A stretch of 63,628 nucleotides of DNA, the filler included, from an uncultured Myxococcia bacterium (GTDB lineage: Bacteria > CAZTWC01), in assembly GCA_964617105.1 (NCBI GenBank). It is 27 parts of 27 records of this genome, joined end to end, with 100 filler letters (N's around TTAATTAATTAA, not from the genome) between each part and the next. Parts side by side here need not be neighbours in the genome. Positions count along the whole stretch, not along the records: positions 17,722 to 20,105 come from CAZTWC010000435.1; 26 more parts are not named here. One strand, given 5' to 3'. How positions within the stretch are numbered: the first letter of the stretch is position 1; each line of letters starts with the position of its first letter. Below are positions 5,154 to 63,562 of the stretch, piece by piece. The position numbers and the translations under genes were made by a program. The notes beneath the pieces were generated by a model, which was not told the origin of the DNA, did no database searches, and saw nothing but the letters and a program-made list of their open reading frames with translations.

Positions 5154-5549
5154 TCTTTGGAATTTAAGAAAAAAATGGCCAAAAAACAGGGCCGGAGCAA
5201 AAAAATTGCCAAGATCAGAAACAAATATTCCCGTCGAGGACCAGCCAAGGTGAAAACCAAAAAGAAGACCGTGCCCAATTTGGGAAAACGGGGACCGGCT
5301 ATCAAAGAGGTGGCTCTGGCTGAGGAACCTCTGGTTGAAAAGATTGATATGGTGGATATAAAATTGGTTACGTTAGAAGAGGAGGAGGGGAGGAAATGGT
5401 ATAAAAAATGGTGGGTATGGACTATTGCCGGCTCGGTGTTGGTAACCGGAGGAACTACCATCTATTTGTTGAGCGGTTCCGATTCAGGATCAAATGTACA
5501 GGCCACTTTTAATTGGAATACCGGGACAACGATTCCTGCTACCCCGTAA
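5154..5549 (+). CDS. Membrane-anchored protein, C-terminal fragment (PEGA/TPR-type tail)
   Basis: KWYKKWWVWTIAG followed by a TM helix, a tail common in myxobacterial-type proteins. Confidence 0.6.
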   Translation, partial: SLEFKKKMAKKQGRSKKIAKIRNKYSRRGPAKVKTKKKTVPNLGKRGPAIKEVALAEEPLVEKIDMVDIKLVTLEEEEGRKWYKKWWVWTIAGSVLVTGGTTIYLLSGSDSGSNVQATFNWNTGTTIPATP

Positions 5550-5634
5550 CCGATAATACTAATCAGGCTATTAACTGTTCAGGGGGTTTATTTTTAACCT
5601 GTTATCCTGTCTAATATCTTAAAAGGTGAATTAA

Positions 5635-7320
5635 ATGAGTTTTAATGTAAAGTATATCGATACTATTCAAAACAAACGATTACTTTGGTTACCAAGAGTA
5701 ATGTTGCCACTGCTTTTTCTAGTTATGCTCTTTGCCTGTTCTGGTGACAATATAAGTGTCTCATTTAATATCGACACCCCCATTGATCGCAGTGATGCTC
5801 TGGCGGGGGTAACCACCATGAAAATCCTGGCCATAGAACAGCCTGGAAACCGGTTGATATCATCGACCGAAGTGCCCCTGATGAATGGATCTGTTTCTAT
5901 GAATAATTCCCTGTCCAGTTCATCTTCAGCCCGCACCGAATACCTGATCCAGGGAATAGCGCCAGGTGAAAACAACCAACCTGTGATAAAGGTGCAGGGT
6001 TCTTCCGGCCACCTGAATCTACACAGCCTTAAAGGCGGTAAAATACCACTTTTGATTGCACCGGTTGAGGATGTATTTGCTACCACAGACTTTCTTAAAA
6101 ACCAGCAATCGGTTCTGCTTAATCCCCGGGCGGGACAGATAACAGTCACTTTGAAAGATGGTCGCGTACTTATTGCCGGCGGTTTCTCCCTGGATGAATC
6201 TAACAAGATGACAGTACACCGGGATGCCTATCTTTATGACCCTAAAACCGGTGTTTTCAGCGATGATGTCTATTACGAAGCGCCCCAAACCAAAAGTAAA
6301 AGTAAGGGTATGTTTAGCCCCAGAGCCTTTGCCAGCGCTGTTTTACTGGAAAAAAGCAACAAAGTTTTAATCACTGGCGGTTTCTATGTCAAGAACGATC
6401 AGTTGGAATCTTTGATGACTCTGGAGGTTTTCGACCCGGCGCTCAACCTGTTTACCAGCCTCTATGTTATGGGTAATCAGCGGGCTTTTCACAAGACGGT
6501 TTACGATAAAAACTATGGCCGGGCTTTTATAGTGGGTGGTATATCCTTTCGGGACGGCCGCCCGGTTTACCTGGATTCTATTGATATCTTTAATGAAAAT
6601 AATTATCAAGTAATCCCCAACGCCAGCGGATTAAAGATAGGAAAAAGGGCTTTTCATGATGTGGCTGTGCTAAAGGCTAACAATTTACCTACCCAACTGA
6701 TCATCTCCGGTGGGTTCAACGATACCCTGAAGGTTCTGGATACTATTAAGGCGATTGACATCAGCCGTGACGGTCCAGAAATGATGGTAGATCCGCCCAA
6801 GATGAGCGTTCCCAGATTCGGACACACCTCAACTGCAATGAGTAATGGTCTTTTAGCCATTGTTGGCGGGTTTAAAGCCGGAACTCCTGGGGCCGATCCT
6901 TCCAAGTTGGCCGGCGCCAATCCCACCAAAAAGATTGATCTATACAACCCCTTCTTAAACCAGGGCAATGGCGGTGATTTTGTCAAAATCGGTGTTCCAA
7001 CCCTGTCTGTAGCCAGGGCTTTTCACAGCGCTGTCATGCTGGGCAATGACCGTATAGCTATTCTAGGCGGTGCCGATCACAATAAAGTACCGGTGGGTAC
7101 AATAGAGTTGCTGACGGTCAACAGCGATAACAACCTGGTGATAAATCAATGGGTTAAACAAACAAACCCCCAGATTGAACCTCGTTATTATCTGGCAGCC
7201 ACCTTTATGCAAACCAGGATGGTATTGATTACTGGCGGTTTTGGTGCTGCCAATGCCAATGCCCCCAATGCGGTTACTACGGCAGAACTTTTTAATCCCC
7301 CCGCCAATAAAAAATATTAG
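5635..7320 (+). CDS. Kelch-repeat (beta-propeller) lipoprotein
   Basis: LFAC lipobox; repeated R.FH....L....VLI.GG...E.FDP blades. Confidence 0.88.
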   Translation: MSFNVKYIDTIQNKRLLWLPRVMLPLLFLVMLFACSGDNISVSFNIDTPIDRSDALAGVTTMKILAIEQPGNRLISSTEVPLMNGSVSMNNSLSSSSSARTEYLIQGIAPGENNQPVIKVQGSSGHLNLHSLKGGKIPLLIAPVEDVFATTDFLKNQQSVLLNPRAGQITVTLKDGRVLIAGGFSLDESNKMTVHRDAYLYDPKTGVFSDDVYYEAPQTKSKSKGMFSPRAFASAVLLEKSNKVLITGGFYVKNDQLESLMTLEVFDPALNLFTSLYVMGNQRAFHKTVYDKNYGRAFIVGGISFRDGRPVYLDSIDIFNENNYQVIPNASGLKIGKRAFHDVAVLKANNLPTQLIISGGFNDTLKVLDTIKAIDISRDGPEMMVDPPKMSVPRFGHTSTAMSNGLLAIVGGFKAGTPGADPSKLAGANPTKKIDLYNPFLNQGNGGDFVKIGVPTLSVARAFHSAVMLGNDRIAILGGADHNKVPVGTIELLTVNSDNNLVINQWVKQTNPQIEPRYYLAATFMQTRMVLITGGFGAANANAPNAVTTAELFNPPANKKY

Positions 7321-7337
7321 GATCATCGGAGCAACAG

Positions 7338-7599
7338 TTGCCACGTTTTTCCATCATCCTTTCTCTTGCGCTCTTAGTTTTTTTGTTCTTTTTTTCGCCA
7401 CTGGTCCAGGCCAGTTTTGGCGGCAAACAACCCCTGGCCATCTACAAAGACAAAATCTACGGCTCTGCTACCATCCTGGGGCAGACTCTGATGATCCCCA
7501 AACATATCCAGCAAAATGCCAACACTGAACTTTTAAATCAATCCAGCGCTGAGTTAAAAATAGGGCAAACTCCGGTGGATGCCAAGATAAAAAAGGCCT
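7338..7599 (+). CDS. Secreted hypothetical protein, N-terminal fragment
   Basis: Signal peptide ending VQA; runs into the linker. Confidence 0.45.
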
Positions 7600-7700
7600 N
7601 NNNNNNNNNNNNNNNNNNNNNNNNNNNNNNNNNNNNNNNNNNNTTAATTAATTAANNNNNNNNNNNNNNNNNNNNNNNNNNNNNNNNNNNNNNNNNNNNA

Positions 7701-8801
7701 GTTTTTGACTATTATATCACTTTTACCGGTAACCAGGAAGATACCGGTAAGTTCGGCAATATGGTTTCTGAAAAAAAGCTTTTGCGTTGTTGGGATTTCT
7801 CTTTACCCGAGTCGGCAGATCAGGTGCTCTTTTCTGGGTTTGCCCGGCGTTTTATCAATGCTTATATTCCTGTTTTTGATCAAAATACAAAAATGGAAAT
7901 TGATCTGGGTAAGTACATTGAGTCCGATATCGAACCGGAGGCAAATGAACCAAAAACCTTGAATGATATTGCCTGTGAAAATCGATTCTTAGATATCGAT
8001 GGAAAAACCTGGAAAGGGGTCAGTGCTCTGATTACCCTGAAAGGTGATGTGGATAATCTCGGTCAATTATTTCAACAGGGTTTAGGTGATTTGACCTTTG
8101 CCAAAATGGCCTCATTTTCCCGGCAGGTAAACGCTTTTTTTGCTATCTATCTTCCCTGGCTTTGTCAATCTGAGAGCAAGTTTGGTAATACCTATACTGT
8201 TTTTGCCGGTGGAGATGATTTTTTTCTGATTGGCCCCTGGTTATCGCAAATAAAATTGGCCTCTCGTCTAAAAGATGATTTTGGCCGTTATGTGGCCAAA
8301 AATCCAGATATCCATTTTTCGGCAGGGCTAAGCATGACCAGACCTGGTATGCCAATTCCAAGTCTGGCAATGATGGCCGAAAACGCCCTTGAGGGTTCAA
8401 AGAATTACAACCCCAAACAGGTTAAACCTGAACCGAAGAACGCTGTTACCTGTTTTAATCGATCGATGTTTTGGGAGGAGTATGATCTATTGCTTGAGAG
8501 AGAGGGGAAATTAGATGAACTGGTAAAAGAGTTGAATCTTAGTACTGGCTATGTTTACAGTTTGCTCAATCTGATTGATATGGCCGAAAAAGTAAGTGAC
8601 AATCCTCAAAACGCTATTTGGCGATCGTATTTTGTTTATCGAACCAGGCGAATGTTGGAGAGATGCCGAGAATTGAACGAAGAAAAACAAAAAAAAATGA
8701 TGCAGCAATTAGCCGATGAGATTGTTTCTATGGGCATTGATAATCACGGTAAAAATTATCGAGTGGCACTATTTACCCATTTGTATCAGCAACGAAAATG
8801 A
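7701..8801 (+). CDS. cas10: Type III-A CRISPR Cas10/Csm1, C-terminal part
   Basis: LKGDVDNLG and YTVFAGGDDFFLIGPW palm motifs; followed by csm2 and csm3. Confidence 0.95.
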   Translation, partial: VFDYYITFTGNQEDTGKFGNMVSEKKLLRCWDFSLPESADQVLFSGFARRFINAYIPVFDQNTKMEIDLGKYIESDIEPEANEPKTLNDIACENRFLDIDGKTWKGVSALITLKGDVDNLGQLFQQGLGDLTFAKMASFSRQVNAFFAIYLPWLCQSESKFGNTYTVFAGGDDFFLIGPWLSQIKLASRLKDDFGRYVAKNPDIHFSAGLSMTRPGMPIPSLAMMAENALEGSKNYNPKQVKPEPKNAVTCFNRSMFWEEYDLLLEREGKLDELVKELNLSTGYVYSLLNLIDMAEKVSDNPQNAIWRSYFVYRTRRMLERCRELNEEKQKKMMQQLADEIVSMGIDNHGKNYRVALFTHLYQQRK

Positions 8802-8855
8802 GTTTGTAATAAATATATCGACAATTTTTAATTCGTTTTGAAAAAGGAGAAGATC

Positions 8856-9302
8856 ATGCAGAGTTATTATTCACCAAAGGGTGGCAAAAGAGATTACCAC
8901 AAGAGTGGAGGATTATCGGAAAACCTGGATACAGGGAAAATTAATTTATCAAAAATTGATGCTGATTTATTCAGTAAGGTTGCCAAACAGACTGCTGATA
9001 CTATTGGATCTGGAAGAAATACCAATAAACCATCACAATTGCGAAAATTTTATGATGAAATTGTCATGTGGGATACCAAATGTGAGGGCAAACCGAAAGA
9101 GTTCAGTCAATATTTGCCTTTTATCCGCATGATCAATGCCAAGGTGGCCTATGCACGGGGAAGAAAACTGGTAGATGATAACTATGTAAAACTGATTGAG
9201 CATTGTTTGCTCCAGGTGATAGATCAAAAAACCATGCGTAATTTCAAGATATTTATGGAGGCGTTTATGGGTTTTTACAAAGCGGTGAGACCAAAAGATT
9301 AG
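8856..9302 (+). CDS. csm2: Type III-A small subunit Csm2
   Basis: SQLRKFYDE, AKVAYARGR, FMEAFMGFYK; AAGGAG RBS before ATG 8856. Confidence 0.93.
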   Translation: MQSYYSPKGGKRDYHKSGGLSENLDTGKINLSKIDADLFSKVAKQTADTIGSGRNTNKPSQLRKFYDEIVMWDTKCEGKPKEFSQYLPFIRMINAKVAYARGRKLVDDNYVKLIEHCLLQVIDQKTMRNFKIFMEAFMGFYKAVRPKD

Positions 9303-9390
9303 TAATGGTTTAGCCATTAGATCGGATATTTCCATTTGGAAACCAAAGAACAGGTACTAATAAATTCCCATTTTAAAAGAGGATAGAATT

Positions 9391-10092
9391 ATGAAACTAA
9401 GAGAAATTAAAAAAATTACCGGCAAAATAGAACTACTTACCGGATTACATATTGGTGGAGGTAATACAGAGATGCACATAGGTGGCACCGATAACCCGGT
9501 GATCAAAAATCCAATTACTCTTGAACCATATATTCCTGGATCCAGTATCAAGGGCAAAATGCGAAGTTTGCTCGAATGGCATATTGGCGTGGTGGATTTA
9601 ACTGGAGGCAAACCAATCAGTTTTGCAGATATTGGCAAGATATCTGAGCCAAAGATGAAAGAAGCGGCAATAGTAATCTTAAAACTCTTTGGTGGTGCGC
9701 CTGACAGCAAAACAGATGATAAACTGGTAGAAGAGATTGGTCCCAGTCGCCTGGCATTTTGGGATTGTAGTCTCGATCCGGATTGGGTTAAGGAGATGGG
9801 AGATCGCAATCTGCTTTTGACCGAGGTCAAAATGGAGAACAGCATTGACCGGATCAGGGGCACGGCAGAAAATCCACGTAATACCGAACGGGTACCGGCC
9901 GAAGCAAAATTTATTTTTAAATTGTCAATGCGGGTGCACGATGAGGAAGATCTATCTGAATTATTGATTACAGGTTTAAGACTGTTGGAACTAACCGGCC
10001 TGGGTGGTTCTGGTTCACGCGGCTATGGCAAGATCAAACTGGAGTTGGATGATAATAACCTTCAGCAAGCTCTTGCAGAGATATCTATATAA
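9391..10092 (+). CDS. csm3: Type III-A RAMP Csm3 (Cas7)
   Basis: TGLHIGG, IGGTDNPVIK, PYIPGSSIKGKMRSLLE, GGSGSRGYG. Confidence 0.96.
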   Translation: MKLREIKKITGKIELLTGLHIGGGNTEMHIGGTDNPVIKNPITLEPYIPGSSIKGKMRSLLEWHIGVVDLTGGKPISFADIGKISEPKMKEAAIVILKLFGGAPDSKTDDKLVEEIGPSRLAFWDCSLDPDWVKEMGDRNLLLTEVKMENSIDRIRGTAENPRNTERVPAEAKFIFKLSMRVHDEEDLSELLITGLRLLELTGLGGSGSRGYGKIKLELDDNNLQQALAEISI

Positions 10093-17621: not shown

Positions 17622-17888
17622 NNNNNNNNNNNNNNNNNNNNNNNNNNNNNNNNNNNNNNNNNNNNTTAATTAATTAANNNNNNNNNNNNNNNNNNNNNNN
17701 NNNNNNNNNNNNNNNNNNNNNTCTCTGCTAAGAGTCTCTGTTTCTCTGTTTTTGGCTTACCGGGTGGTTAACAGGGTTGTTAACCGTTTTGAAAATGGGC
17801 ATTTGAGCGACCGGGCGGTTAACAAAAATAACTATTAACCATCGGAGAAGGGGTTGTTATTGTTGGGGGTTTTGCAGGTGGCGATGTT

Positions 17889-18134
17889 TTATTTAGCATG
17901 GTTGTCGGTTTCGGTTTCTTCTCTGGGAGCGATATCAGCCATGGCAACTGTTTTACCCTCTCTCGATGCTTTGAGGGCCACCCGGATGTTATTGATCTGT
18001 AAATCGGAAAGTTTGCCCAGATTGGCTACCACTCTGTGGGCCGGAACACCATCGTCACGCCGGTAACTCTCTACCAGTTGCGCATATCGGTAGGTTTTAC
18101 CATTTTGTTTTTTGGTGGAGACTCTCAGGTGCAT
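17889..18134 (-). pseudogene. IS1634-family transposase N-terminal remnant
   Basis: MHLRVSTKKQNGKTYRYAQLVESYRR..G.P.HRVVANLGKL; stops at 81 aa. Confidence 0.75.
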
Positions 18135-18261
18135 GGTTTTGAATCAATTCCCGGAATAGATTTGGCCGACACTGTCTGCCAAATTTGTGGATAGGTTAGA
18201 TAAAACTGACGATACAGTATCCAATAACCTAAAAGTGTCAGGCTCGTATTTACTGTCCGAC

Positions 18262-18582
18262 TCACCTTGTAACTTTGGCATTGGCATCTTTCAGTTTTTC
18301 CACCAGCCACAGGTTGATCAGTGTTTCTACCGAGACGCCCTGGCTTTCAGCATAATTTCTTAAGGGAAAAATCAAGTCTTTTGCCAGGGGAAAATAAGTT
18401 TTGATTGTTTTAATATCCATCTCGACATCTACATCTTCAAGGTGCTCTTCATGATCAGCCAGACTCTGACTATCCCAAAATTCGTCAAAGGCCTCCATAG
18501 ACTCAAAATTGTCAGGCAAGGTATCAGTTGCCTTTTTGTGAACCGTTTCCTTTGCCTTTTTTGCTGGTTTACTTTTTGCCAT
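18262..18582 (-). CDS. BrnA/CopG-type antitoxin
   Basis: EFWDSQSLAD...GVSVETLINLWL; overlaps the brnT-like gene. Confidence 0.85.
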   Translation of the reverse strand: MAKSKPAKKAKETVHKKATDTLPDNFESMEAFDEFWDSQSLADHEEHLEDVDVEMDIKTIKTYFPLAKDLIFPLRNYAESQGVSVETLINLWLVEKLKDANAKVTR

Positions 18583-18859
18583 AACTTTTCAACTCCTTTT
18601 TATCCATGTCCCTGGCACTAATAATAAGGGCCTGACTAGATTTTTTTAGGATGAAAAAAACTCTTAAAAACCGTCCCGCCTCTGTTTGCCCAAGGGCGGC
18701 ATAGACATCTTCACCTTTAATATTACCCTTTTTTAACTTTCTTATTTTTGGCTGATTCTGGTTATTGAAAAACTCCTCAACTTCAACAGCACTGACGTGG
18801 TGTTTGTGTTCTAACTTCTCAACAATATAGTCAAACCAAATAATCCCCTTTATTATCAA
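18569..18859 (-). CDS. BrnT-family ribonuclease toxin
   Basis: KLEHKHHVS..EVEE, ALGQTEAGR, IISARDM..KE. Confidence 0.9.
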   Translation of the reverse strand: MIIKGIIWFDYIVEKLEHKHHVSAVEVEEFFNNQNQPKIRKLKKGNIKGEDVYAALGQTEAGRFLRVFFILKKSSQALIISARDMDKKELKSYGKK

Positions 18860-20105
18860 TATACCATATCCTTCCTTGATTTTCGAATTATAAACTCAAC
18901 TCGTCTCTCCATCACGCTGGATAACCGCAGACCTGTTTCCCGAATTATAACCATTGAGAGATTATTTTCAATGCATCGGTCTGAGAAAAAAGGGAAATAT
19001 TTTTGGTAAAAACCGACTCGCTTGCCCAGCTGTTTTCTCGGTTTGATAAATCTAAAGCCAAATTGGCGGTTCATAAACATTGCCTGTGGTCCGTAAAACT
19101 CGAAAAAGCAGCCCACCTTGAAGAAAAGTAAGTGTTGATAAAATGAGCGAAGAAAGTGTTGGTATTGGGAGTATAGATTGGCAAAGGGCGGCATTTTTGT
19201 TGACCCAAGTCTCAATTTGATCTTTGTTCCAGAAAAATCAAAGAAGCAGTGGAGGAATTGGTAATTTTCAAACAGATGTTTTTTTAATTTATGAGAATTA
19301 GCGTGTTTAAAATGGCCCAAATAGGAGTTCAAAGTGTCTCTCAGTTTGTTGACTATCGACTCATCATTGATAATCATTGTCATCTGGCCAAGGGGCTTTA
19401 TCAAATCTTTTTCAAATTGGTCGAGTTTGCTCTTCAGGTTGTTCACCACCCGGTTGCGCACCAGAGTATATTGAGGCCTGGTCATATATCCAAGAAAATC
19501 AATGCCGCCTTTTACAGGCACTATTCGACATTTGTTCATATTCAGCGATAACTGCAGTCTATTTTCCAGAAATTTGTCCGCCTCAATTAAGCATTCTTGG
19601 AGTCTGCTTCGACTTTGATGCAAAATCAAGACATCATCCACATATCTCATGTAGAATCTGCATTTGAGACTATGTTTTGCAAACTGGTCGAATTCGTTCA
19701 TATAGAGATTGGCATAGAACTGGCTGGTCAAATTGCCAATGGGCAGACCGGTTTTATTTTGGCGGCCAAAGAGTGTTTTGTGGGCCGGGATGGTGTTCCA
19801 CAGGGCGGGATCATCTTTGAAAATATAGTTTTGGCAGCAGTCATGGAAAATCACCTCCCTGGTAAGCCACAACAAGAATTCATCCTTTAATTTACCAGCC
19901 ACCAGATTGTAAAGAATCTCTTTGCTGATATTCATAAAAAAACCGCTGATATCCAGGGCCAGATAGTAGGCATTGGCTCTGCGGTTTTCAGTCACCTTCA
20001 TCATAAACTTCTGCAGCCTTTTCACGGCCAGATGAGTTCCTTTATTTTTGCGGCAGGAATAGGAGTCATAGATAAATTTTGGCTCCCAGATTTTTTCGTA
20101 TTGCT
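18856..20105 (-). CDS. DGR-class reverse transcriptase with C-terminal MutS domain I-like extension (5' truncated)
   Basis: DSYSCRKNKGTH, LDISGFF, GLPIGNLTSQ, RYVDD, GIDFLGY, NSYLGH; C-terminal LLFFKVGCFFEFYGPQA. Confidence 0.88.
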
Positions 20106-20205
20106 NNNNNNNNNNNNNNNNNNNNNNNNNNNNNNNNNNNNNNNNNNNNTTAATTAATTAANNNNNNNNNNNNNNNNNNNNNNNNNNNNNNNNNNNNNNN
20201 NNNNN

Positions 20206-49536: not shown

Positions 49537-49653
49537 NNNNNNNNNNATTAGATGGACTTGAAGTTTTTGAGGGCGGTTGGTATCTTGATTCTACATACTG
49601 GAAAAATGGAGAAAAGCATGGAATAGAAAAATCGTATAGATCAGAATACCCAC

Positions 49654-63136: not shown

Positions 63137-63562
63137 TTGGGCTGAAGAGGTTCAGGTGATCGCCAGATATGGCAGTTTTATAACGGCAATATCTGGAGGA
63201 AAGTCCGGGCTCCAGAGGGCAGGGTGCTGGATAATTTCCAGTCAGGGCAACTTGAAGGAAAGTGCCACAGAAAACAGACTACCCTGGCCGCTAAAAGGTA
63301 AAACCGAGTTTTACCTCGGCGGCATTGGGAAAAGGTGAAAAGGTGCGGTAAGAGCGCACCGGGCCGGCGGCGACGTTGGTTGCATGGTAAACCCCATCCG
63401 GAGCAAGACCGAGTAGAAACCTGAAGGAGTAGCCCGCTTCAAGGGTTTGGGTAAGGTCGCTTGAAAAAGGGAGTAATCTTTTTTCTAGATAAATGATCAC
63501 CAAGGGGTTCATCCAAAGTGAGTTCCAAGACAGAACCCGGCTTATTAACCTCTTTAGCCCAA
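63137..63562 (+). ncRNA. rnpB: RNase P RNA, bacterial type A
   Basis: GAGGAAAGTCCGGGCTC, GAAAGTGCCACAGAAA, GGTAAACCCC, ACAGAACCCGGCTTA; P1 helix TTGGGCTGAAGAGGTT / AACCTCTTTAGCCCAA. Confidence 0.97.

Follow-up and report, generated by a model that had tools for sequence, protein, structure and literature searches.

A diversity-generating-retroelement-type reverse transcriptase with a C-terminal MutS domain I-like module in an uncultured Myxococcia bacterium

How do mutations made by diversity-generating retroelements (DGRs) survive mismatch repair by the host? This question is raised by a gene in a 63,628-base stretch of DNA, referred to below as the window, from the genome of an uncultured Myxococcia bacterium (assembly GCA_964617105.1). 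In DGRs, a reverse transcriptase (RT) copies a template RNA with misincorporation opposite adenines, after which the cDNA replaces a variable repeat (VR). The proposed intermediate of this retrohoming is a cDNA:VR heteroduplex that is dense in mismatches. The gene in the window encodes an RT whose C-terminal tail resembles domain I of MutS, a protein of mismatch repair. A naturally occurring RT that includes a domain for mismatch recognition, conserved at the residues that touch mismatches, would offer a direct handle on the question of repair survival.

The gene is very probably the 3' four-fifths of a DGR RT gene, which runs unbroken past the thumb into a MutS domain I of approximately 105 residues. 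The explanation set out below is judged probable as a whole; the mechanism that it proposes for the tail is graded separately and more cautiously. By itself the window adds little, and its value lies in the picture of the family to which it led: a robust fusion, retention of the Avd partner and hundreds of clusters. The tail might also serve as a component with which directed evolution by DGRs could be improved.

The RT gene and its class

The window is an artificial chain of about 26 short contigs (approximately 2–2.5 kb each), joined by linkers of the form N44-TTAATTAATTAA-N44. Since it is a concatenation and not continuous DNA, adjoining stretches are not neighbours in the genome. The RT-bearing stretch, positions 17722–20105, corresponds to contig 435 (2,384 bases) of a genome bin of 4.07 Mb in 489 contigs, rated 96.5% complete and 3.35% contaminated. 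The following features of the gene were located in the window:

20106–20205, no strand: artificial linker N44-TTAATTAATTAA-N44, the site where the RT gene is cut
18859–20103, minus strand: open frame of the RT–MutS_I fusion, residues 93–507; 415 stop-free codons, 5' end cut at the contig boundary
19486–20091, minus strand: RVT_1 fingers/palm domain (Pfam, E 4.1e-20, residues 5–206 of the translation)
19720–19749, minus strand: RT motif 4, GLPIGNLTSQ, of the [IVL]GxxxSQ form; aligns with GIPIGSLTSQ of 8ub7_A
19633–19644, minus strand: catalytic YVDD, RT motif 5 (sequence)
19312–19329, minus strand: NSYLGH of the thumb region (sequence)
18892–19173, minus strand: MutS domain I-like module (Pfam MutS_I), the last domain (Pfam, profile and predicted fold)
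19081–19131, minus strand: LLFFKVGCFFEFYGPQA in the MutS_I-like tail (sequence)
19099–19107, minus strand: Phe-Phe-Glu (F425-F426-E427 of the full-length protein), equivalent to the Phe-x-Glu with which MutS contacts mismatches
19009–19017, minus strand: VGF in the tail (sequence)
18856–18858, minus strand: stop codon of the fusion gene

The motifs on which a sequence-only reading of this DNA had relied (GLPIGNLTSQ, YVDD, NSYLGH, LLFFKVGCFFEFYGPQA and VGF) were all found in one stop-free minus-strand frame, a concurrence far beyond chance. The same reading had described the 5' side as cut off. The truncation is real and is an assembly break, although the frame is in phase from 20103 and not from 20105. 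A 389-codon open reading frame (ORF) with a GTG start at 20025 represents only an inner portion of the 415-codon frame. In a protein search, the 415-residue product was 100% identical, over its full span, to a public protein of 507 residues (P0002). Because a contig boundary and linker cut the gene, and because an intact 507-residue protein is known, the truncation was attributed to assembly and not to mutation. Contigs from two marine metagenome runs, at a depth of about 3–5, reach 337 nucleotides past window position 20105 and then stop, by arithmetic 61 nucleotides upstream of the RT start codon; they supplied the rest of the RT gene and, up to that point, no template repeat (TR). The full 507-residue frame is intact and carries all catalytic and MutS domain I hallmark residues.

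The RT half matched Pfam RVT_1 with 72.8 bits (cut-off 29.6). The [IVL]GxxxSQ form of motif 4 marks DGR RTs. In an alignment of 83 relatives, the motif 4 residues G211, G215, N216, S219 and Q220 and the YVDD residues Y246, D248 and D249 were invariant, while S352, Y353 and H356 of NSYLGH were conserved in at least 90%. When the RT sequence was searched against solved structures, the best match was 8ub7_A (E 1.1e-34), an entry titled 'Diversity-generating retroelement (DGR) ribonucleoprotein reverse transcriptase', followed by a group II intron RT (1.4e-13), a Cas6-RT-Cas1 protein (1.8e-7) and a retron RT (2.3e-3). An AlphaFold model of the full-length protein, built on the 83 relatives, had a mean predicted local distance difference test score (pLDDT) of 91.9 and a predicted template-modelling score (pTM) of 0.85. 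A Foldseek search with this model again returned 8ub7_A first (E 7.8e-22, template-modelling (TM) score 0.87 on the target, 29% identity), with GsI-IIC as runner-up (E 1.2e-15). The solved enzyme is the RT of the Bordetella phage BPP-1 DGR, known as a bRT-Avd-RNA complex (PDB 8ub7, 8ubc-8ubf). It shares the motif 4 form and YxDD with the window RT, to which it is 27–29% identical, and works with an Avd partner, as relatives of the window RT use a bAvd-like one; in contrast to the window RT, it has 328 residues, ends after the thumb and contains no MutS-like domain. Taken together, sequence and model supported a closer relationship of the RT half to DGR RTs than to group II intron, retron or defence RTs; the sequence-only reading had likewise called it DGR-type.

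An enzyme of another type carrying a MutS-like tail (a group II intron-type, retron or UG/DRT defence-type RT) would fit the output of the classification libraries, which count against a DGR assignment in that they do not name the protein a DGR RT. Its best NCBIfam match was the group II intron RT/maturase family TIGR04416 (E 7.6e-30), and PADLOC yielded only generic RT and UG-type matches (RT_UG17 at 98 bits). However, every NCBIfam score fell far below its cut-off: 104.2 bits against 300 for TIGR04416, 57 against 200 for Drt3a and 41 against 235 for the retron RT. At gathering score, neither the RT contig nor the locus of its paralog (see below) gave a match to any Rfam family, those for group II intron RNA among them. 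With TIGR04416 under its cut-off and no intron RNA around the ORF, identity as a group II intron RT/maturase was rejected. Since, in addition, a DGR RT was the top solved match by both sequence and fold, and relatives have TR/VR pairs and Avd, a non-DGR origin of the enzyme is very improbable and has been largely refuted.

The MutS domain I-like tail and its family

Residues 311–404 of the 415-residue translation matched Pfam MutS_I at E 1.2e-6 and 29.1 bits, above the cut-off of 20.6, over profile positions 4–102 of 113; in a scan of the whole genome the same tail scored 31.9 bits. A profile built from seven tails matched solved structures of Taq MutS (2.9e-13), E. coli MutS (about 2e-9), MSH6 (1.7e-6) and MSH3 (about 8e-4), with every match confined to domain I. 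In these alignments, the family sequence F-Q-V-G-c-F-Y-E-F lay on L-F-Q-V-G-D-F-Y-E-C of Taq MutS, so that F425-F426-E427 corresponded to Taq F39-Y40-E41; the F-x-E retention that had been read from the DNA was thus borne out. For the C-terminal 109 residues, an AlphaFold model computed from an alignment of 29 tails (the window protein, its paralog and 27 metagenomic loci) had a mean pLDDT of 92.4. Foldseek against the PDB gave 1ewq_A as its best match (E 1.3e-6, TM 0.80 on the query). There were 49 matches at E ≤ 0.001, and among the 40 matches listed all were MutS, MSH6 or MSH3 chains. Profile search and structure prediction, the two checks suggested beforehand for the tail, therefore both returned MutS domain I.

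Compared with domain I of Taq MutS (1ewq), E. coli MutS (1e3m) and MSH6, the predicted tail has the same fold (TM 0.75–0.83) at 13–20% identity in structural alignments, and shares the landmarks Q-Y, G-x-F-x-E, G-[FI]-P and E-R. It differs in the residue before the Phe: where MutS has Asp, the window tail has Cys, and its relatives have Cys, Arg, Ser or Lys. It also differs in extent: full-length MutS has connector, core, clamp and ATPase domains, whereas the window protein ends about 11 residues past domain I and lacks all of these, including MutS_V. The protein is, for this reason, not a MutS but only a carrier of its first domain. The MutS_V matches of the genome are located on contigs other than 435.

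In an alignment with 120 relatives, the MutS domain I landmarks were the most conserved positions of the tail: Q405 was kept in 120, Y406 in 118, F420 in 113, G423 in 120, G456 in 118 and R492 in 119. At position 425, 96 relatives have Phe and 21 have Tyr; at position 427, Glu occurs in 113, Gln in 6 and Asp in 1. Judging from this alignment, the MutS hallmark residues of the tail are under purifying selection.

The fusion itself is not new, and the novelty implied by the sequence-only reading was too high. About 20% of DGR RTs have C-terminal extensions, and in three related RTs a MutS_I motif was noted in such an extension, its similarity being called 'weak' (Wu et al., 2018, Nucleic Acids Res 46:11, PMC5758913). 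By their description, these three RTs have a post-thumb MutS domain I-like extension comparable to that of the window RT. In contrast to the 'weak' similarity reported for them, the window tail passes the Pfam cut-off, has a predicted fold that is confidently MutS domain I and comes from a family with about 300 clusters. The fusion has thus been known since 2018, and the window holds a further, truncated example of a fairly large kind.

Free-standing relatives of the module are also known. The MSL accessory class (Architecture D) occurred in 16 of 372 DGRs, always with avd, and comprises proteins of 112–283 residues (PMC5758913); a 2021 review (PMC8632793) and a 2023 survey (PMC10053308) list MSL/PF01624 among the DGR accessory proteins. 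Like the window family, MSL proteins, including the Bacteroides Msl (bioRxiv 10.1101/2024.11.15.621889), are MutS domain I-like, associated with DGRs and found where Avd is kept. They are encoded by a separate small gene, whereas the homologous module of the window is the C-terminal domain of the RT within one frame and may act as an MSL protein does.

A protein search retrieved 3,095 proteins at E ≤ 0.001 among 4,211 candidates, tail-less DGR RTs included. The 120 best homologues were 41–100% identical to the window protein, and their domains were counted by hand from precomputed Pfam assignments. PF00078 and PF01624 occurred together in 108 of them. Eighteen additionally carried PF07603 (Lcl_C) and one a bAvd domain; the Lcl_C signal arises because gene calls run through the template repeat into the RT, and two of the proteins (P0025 and P0052) start with an Asn-rich sequence like the end of an Lcl_C protein. 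When the tail profile was run against 1.84 billion cluster representatives, 303 proteins matched at E ≤ 1e-10, which puts the family at about 300 clusters (50% identity); the 7,392 matches at E ≤ 0.001 include canonical MutS. In the 150 best profile matches the domain formed the C-terminus of proteins that differed widely in length, many of them evidently fragments cut at the 5' side. Short proteins with the module numbered 105 (53–244 residues), a count that pools fragments with truly free-standing genes of MSL type.

A metagenome scan seeded with the most conserved peptide of the tail yielded 61 loci. In 37 of these the tail lay within an RT frame of at least 450 residues; among the other 24, some frames run off the end of a contig, some are shorter and possibly frameshifted or free-standing, and one RT is interrupted by a transposase insertion (L093). 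The fusion is the rule in the family. DGR-type diversification was evident at the same level: 23 of the 61 loci had a pair of repeats of 95–148 nucleotides in which at least 80% of the differences fell at adenines of one copy (for example 13/13, 10/10 and 17/17, 18/18, 25/26 and 24/24). Such a pair was present at 19 of the 25 frames of at least 450 residues with at least 700 nucleotides of upstream sequence. The adenine-directed TR/VR pairs beside same-tail relatives support the DGR identity of the window RT.

In all but one of the 23 pair-bearing loci, the TR was at the RT start or overlapped it; the exception is L128, whose pair belongs to a second RT gene farther along the contig. In the gene lists that were inspected, the layout was a target gene with a 3' VR in its Lcl_C or C-type-lectin-like end, a gene for a protein of approximately 117–136 residues, the TR and the RT–MutS_I gene, at some loci followed by a second target gene with a second VR. 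The small gene between VR and TR in L094 is bAvd-like (PF22296, 43.9 bits, cut-off 40), and the targets in L094, L098 and L127 are Lcl_C proteins (86–130 bits). Since a bAvd-like gene is kept in family cassettes, the tail is an addition to Avd, not a substitute for it. The interrupted RT–MutS_I gene of L093 (4362–8090) is split by a gene for a transposase-like protein of 613 residues (5418–7256), with an intact TR/VR pair upstream in which 17 of 18 differences are at A.

Outside the family, a scan of genome contigs with the whole RT protein found 80 loci of distant DGR RTs (32–39% identity), mostly in metagenome-assembled genomes of Patescibacteria type; these match only from residues ~10–16 to ~365–411 and have no tail. 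No homologue was found in 40 genomes related to the source at domain level only, apart from one RT of another kind with 28% identity.

Possible role of the tail

If the tail has kept the function of its MutS counterpart, it could act where DGR mutations are most exposed. Tethered to the RT, it would place its conserved Phe on mispaired or unstacked bases of the retrohoming intermediate, the densely mismatched cDNA:VR heteroduplex. Without the ATPase and repair-signalling parts, it would occupy mismatch sites and start no repair, and new mutations would in this way be shielded from host MutS-MutL. The tail fits a module that recognizes mismatches without triggering repair, because its mismatch-site residues appear to be selected while the clamp, ATPase and signalling parts are absent. 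That it binds mispaired retrohoming intermediates and shields them from host MutS is put forward tentatively, as the most likely of the roles considered but with clearly less than even chances. Both MutL and a canonical MutS are present in the host, the latter with its domain I on contig 101 (147 bits) and MutS_V on contig 404, a circumstantial fit to shielding. At contig 101:9180–11001, a gene with an Lcl_C domain lies ~1.1 kb upstream of the canonical mutS, which may be a coincidence.

Work on other DGRs bears on the same point. In Bacteroides, the mutated fraction of the VR rose 5- to 10-fold when mutS was deleted, and did so in all-or-nothing fashion (bioRxiv 10.1101/2024.11.15.621889); for DGRs installed in E. 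coli, mutS was deleted or a dominant-negative MutL was added (PMC12875486; bioRxiv 10.64898/2026.07.21.739853). A full-text literature search, whose coverage leaves out most subscription journals, found no experimental test of the fused or the free MutS domain I module. Among 40 small genomes (0.4–1.4 Mb; G041–G080, loci L001–L063) with tail-less DGR RTs, none had a MutS_I domain at E ≤ 0.001, so that no canonical MutS with domain I was seen in them; this, too, is a circumstantial fit to shielding.

Several considerations weigh against shielding. Isolated MutS domain I, lacking the clamp domains, is a weak DNA binder, and most DGR RTs, to our knowledge, have no MutS-like domain. The contrast with the 40 small genomes concerns one group, of genomes whose completeness is not established, and is confounded by kinship. 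The Tyr and Gln variants at positions 425 and 427 point in the same direction. Furthermore, mutS was not needed for retrohoming of the Bordetella phage (Wu et al., 2018, PMC5758913), and the constitutively active 'Bov' element of Bacteroides is not among the three that are listed with Msl (bioRxiv 10.1101/2024.11.15.621889).

The tail may instead be a general nucleic-acid-binding or structural module, a reused MutS domain I fold that holds the template RNA, the cDNA or a structured site near the VR and has no part in mismatch recognition or repair evasion. Its post-thumb position, where group II intron RTs have their DNA-binding domain, would agree with this, as would the retention of Avd in the family, which makes the tail an addition to a working core. 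The full-length model, confident throughout (pLDDT 91.9, pTM 0.85), fits a fixed, integrated domain, and the replacement of Phe by Tyr in 21 of 120 relatives is readily accommodated. A pure scaffold, however, would need none of the residues that are kept most strictly, those of the mismatch-site G-x-[FY]-x-E (G423 in 120 and E427 in 113 of 120), and the free-standing versions (the 105 short proteins, fragments pooled, and the MSL class) indicate that the module can work outside the RT fold. A purely general role is accordingly viewed with doubt, as conceivable but not probable.

Covalent tethering to the polymerase also allows for an action during cDNA synthesis: the tail would grip adenine mispairs in the nascent RNA:cDNA hybrid and aid extension past misincorporations, or keep the mutated cDNA paired. 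The conserved F-x-E and the mispairs that a DGR RT makes at template adenines by design, as reflected in the TR/VR patterns of the family, are in line with such a role. Neither the solved 328-residue DGR RT nor the 80 distant RTs have a tail, which implies that it is not generally needed for extension, and MutS domain I has known contacts with DNA duplexes; a role in synthesis is considered unlikely.

The shielding proposal can be taken further, to a shield that acts in cis: the tail would ride with the cDNA into the target, cap the mismatches and block the MutS-MutL activity that otherwise reverts most retrohoming, and isolated MutS domain I modules would be a general counter-repair device of mobile DNA. 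The tail profile also matched giant proteins (P0291, P0341 and P0348; 1,329–2,410 residues), each with 2–4 MutS_I repeats, whose partner domains are DarA_C, ArdC-N, or an N6-methylase with SNF2/helicase. These matches, which fit shielding circumstantially, suggest that isolated MutS domain I modules occur in anti-restriction-type proteins of mobile DNA. The wider proposal rests on this occurrence of 2–4 copies in giant proteins of anti-restriction type (DarA, ArdC, methylase-helicase), and is a speculative one whose odds we regard as well below even.

The source genome and the surroundings of the gene

A second full-length RT–MutS_I copy was found on contig 219 (bases 1–1666; locus L083), 73% identical to the window copy in both protein and DNA. 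Bases 63–173 of this contig encode an Asn-codon-rich peptide like the end of an Lcl_C protein, with a stop just before the RT, and are TR-like. A candidate VR on contig 176 (4423–4515) was rejected: it is 61% like the paralog TR, with differences at all four bases and 15 of 36 at adenines, and represents a paralogous Lcl_C end.

From a self-comparison of the genome (word size 14), 11 pairs of repeats emerged whose differences were at least 75% A- or T-specific. The pairs involving contig 128 were rejected as TR/VR because they belong to a multicopy intergenic repeat. This repeat (contig 128:1169–1293) is ~120 nucleotides long and partly palindromic, occurs on more than 20 other contigs in copies of 77–95% identity and mimics adenine-biased pairs. 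The remaining nine pairs were 51–99 nucleotides long with 5–7 differences, none of them on a contig with an RT, and no convincing adenine-biased TR/VR pair was found across the 489-contig assembly. Nine Lcl_C matches above cut-off, on seven contigs, are possible past or present targets. A partial Lcl_C on contig 117 was discarded as a broken target gene, since it lies internal to its contig.

Counting against the reading, the window copy lacks its DGR partners in the assembly. No site in the genome agreed with the contig 219 TR in 80% or more of the non-A positions, and no cognate VR was found for either copy. No bAvd of the family subtype was found in the assembly: three family Avds used as queries returned a fragment of 40 residues on contig 167, and the partial bAvd on contig 476 belongs to a different subtype. 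The DNA upstream of the window RT is missing from the assembly. Finally, a toxin-antitoxin pair and a transposase fragment lie downstream of the RT, so that the copy could be an orphan.

The pair consists of a BrnT-type toxin gene (18569–18859, minus strand; Pfam BrnT_toxin, 40.4 bits, cut-off 34.5), which starts on the RT stop codon, and, after it, a CopG/BrnA-like antitoxin candidate (18262–18582, minus strand) with scores below the cut-offs. By sequence, the two make up a type II toxin-antitoxin module that follows the RT immediately (window 18262–18859, minus strand). An 81-codon ORF (17889–18134, minus strand) resembles, by eye and with no support from family searches, the N-terminus of the 613-residue transposase-like ORF of L093, whose pattern we take to be that of the IS1634 type.

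The window copy might accordingly be an orphan or decaying DGR remnant that no longer diversifies. With completeness rated at 96.5%, the lack of a cognate VR, a matching Avd or a TR for the window copy would be expected of a remnant, as would the BrnT/BrnA pair and transposase fragment directly downstream and the presence of other broken DGR pieces in the genome. Yet the 507-residue frame is intact with its catalytic and MutS domain I hallmark residues, and the gene is truncated by a contig break, not by mutation. In an assembly of 489 contigs at a depth of about 3–5, missing repeats are to be expected; low depth and fragmentation make the absence of TR, VR and Avd for the window copy uninformative. 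Decay of this copy therefore seems rather unlikely.

Further DGR pieces were observed in the genome. Contig 121 (7500–10032) carries HRDC and bAvd, followed by an N-terminal piece (186 residues) of another, distinct DGR RT beside a TR-like sequence; contig 167 (1–280) has an Avd N-terminus that runs into a TR-like, Asn-rich frame; and contig 484 (64–1420) has an HRDC-like ORF and an ORF that by eye is like an IS200-type transposase, beside a TR-like frame. The pieces on these three contigs may be broken elements or chimeric assemblies.

Elsewhere in the window, three additional N10 gaps were located at 49537, 53882 and 55616, and a full-length bacterial RNase P RNA of class A (291 bits) occupies positions 63143–63560 on the plus strand.

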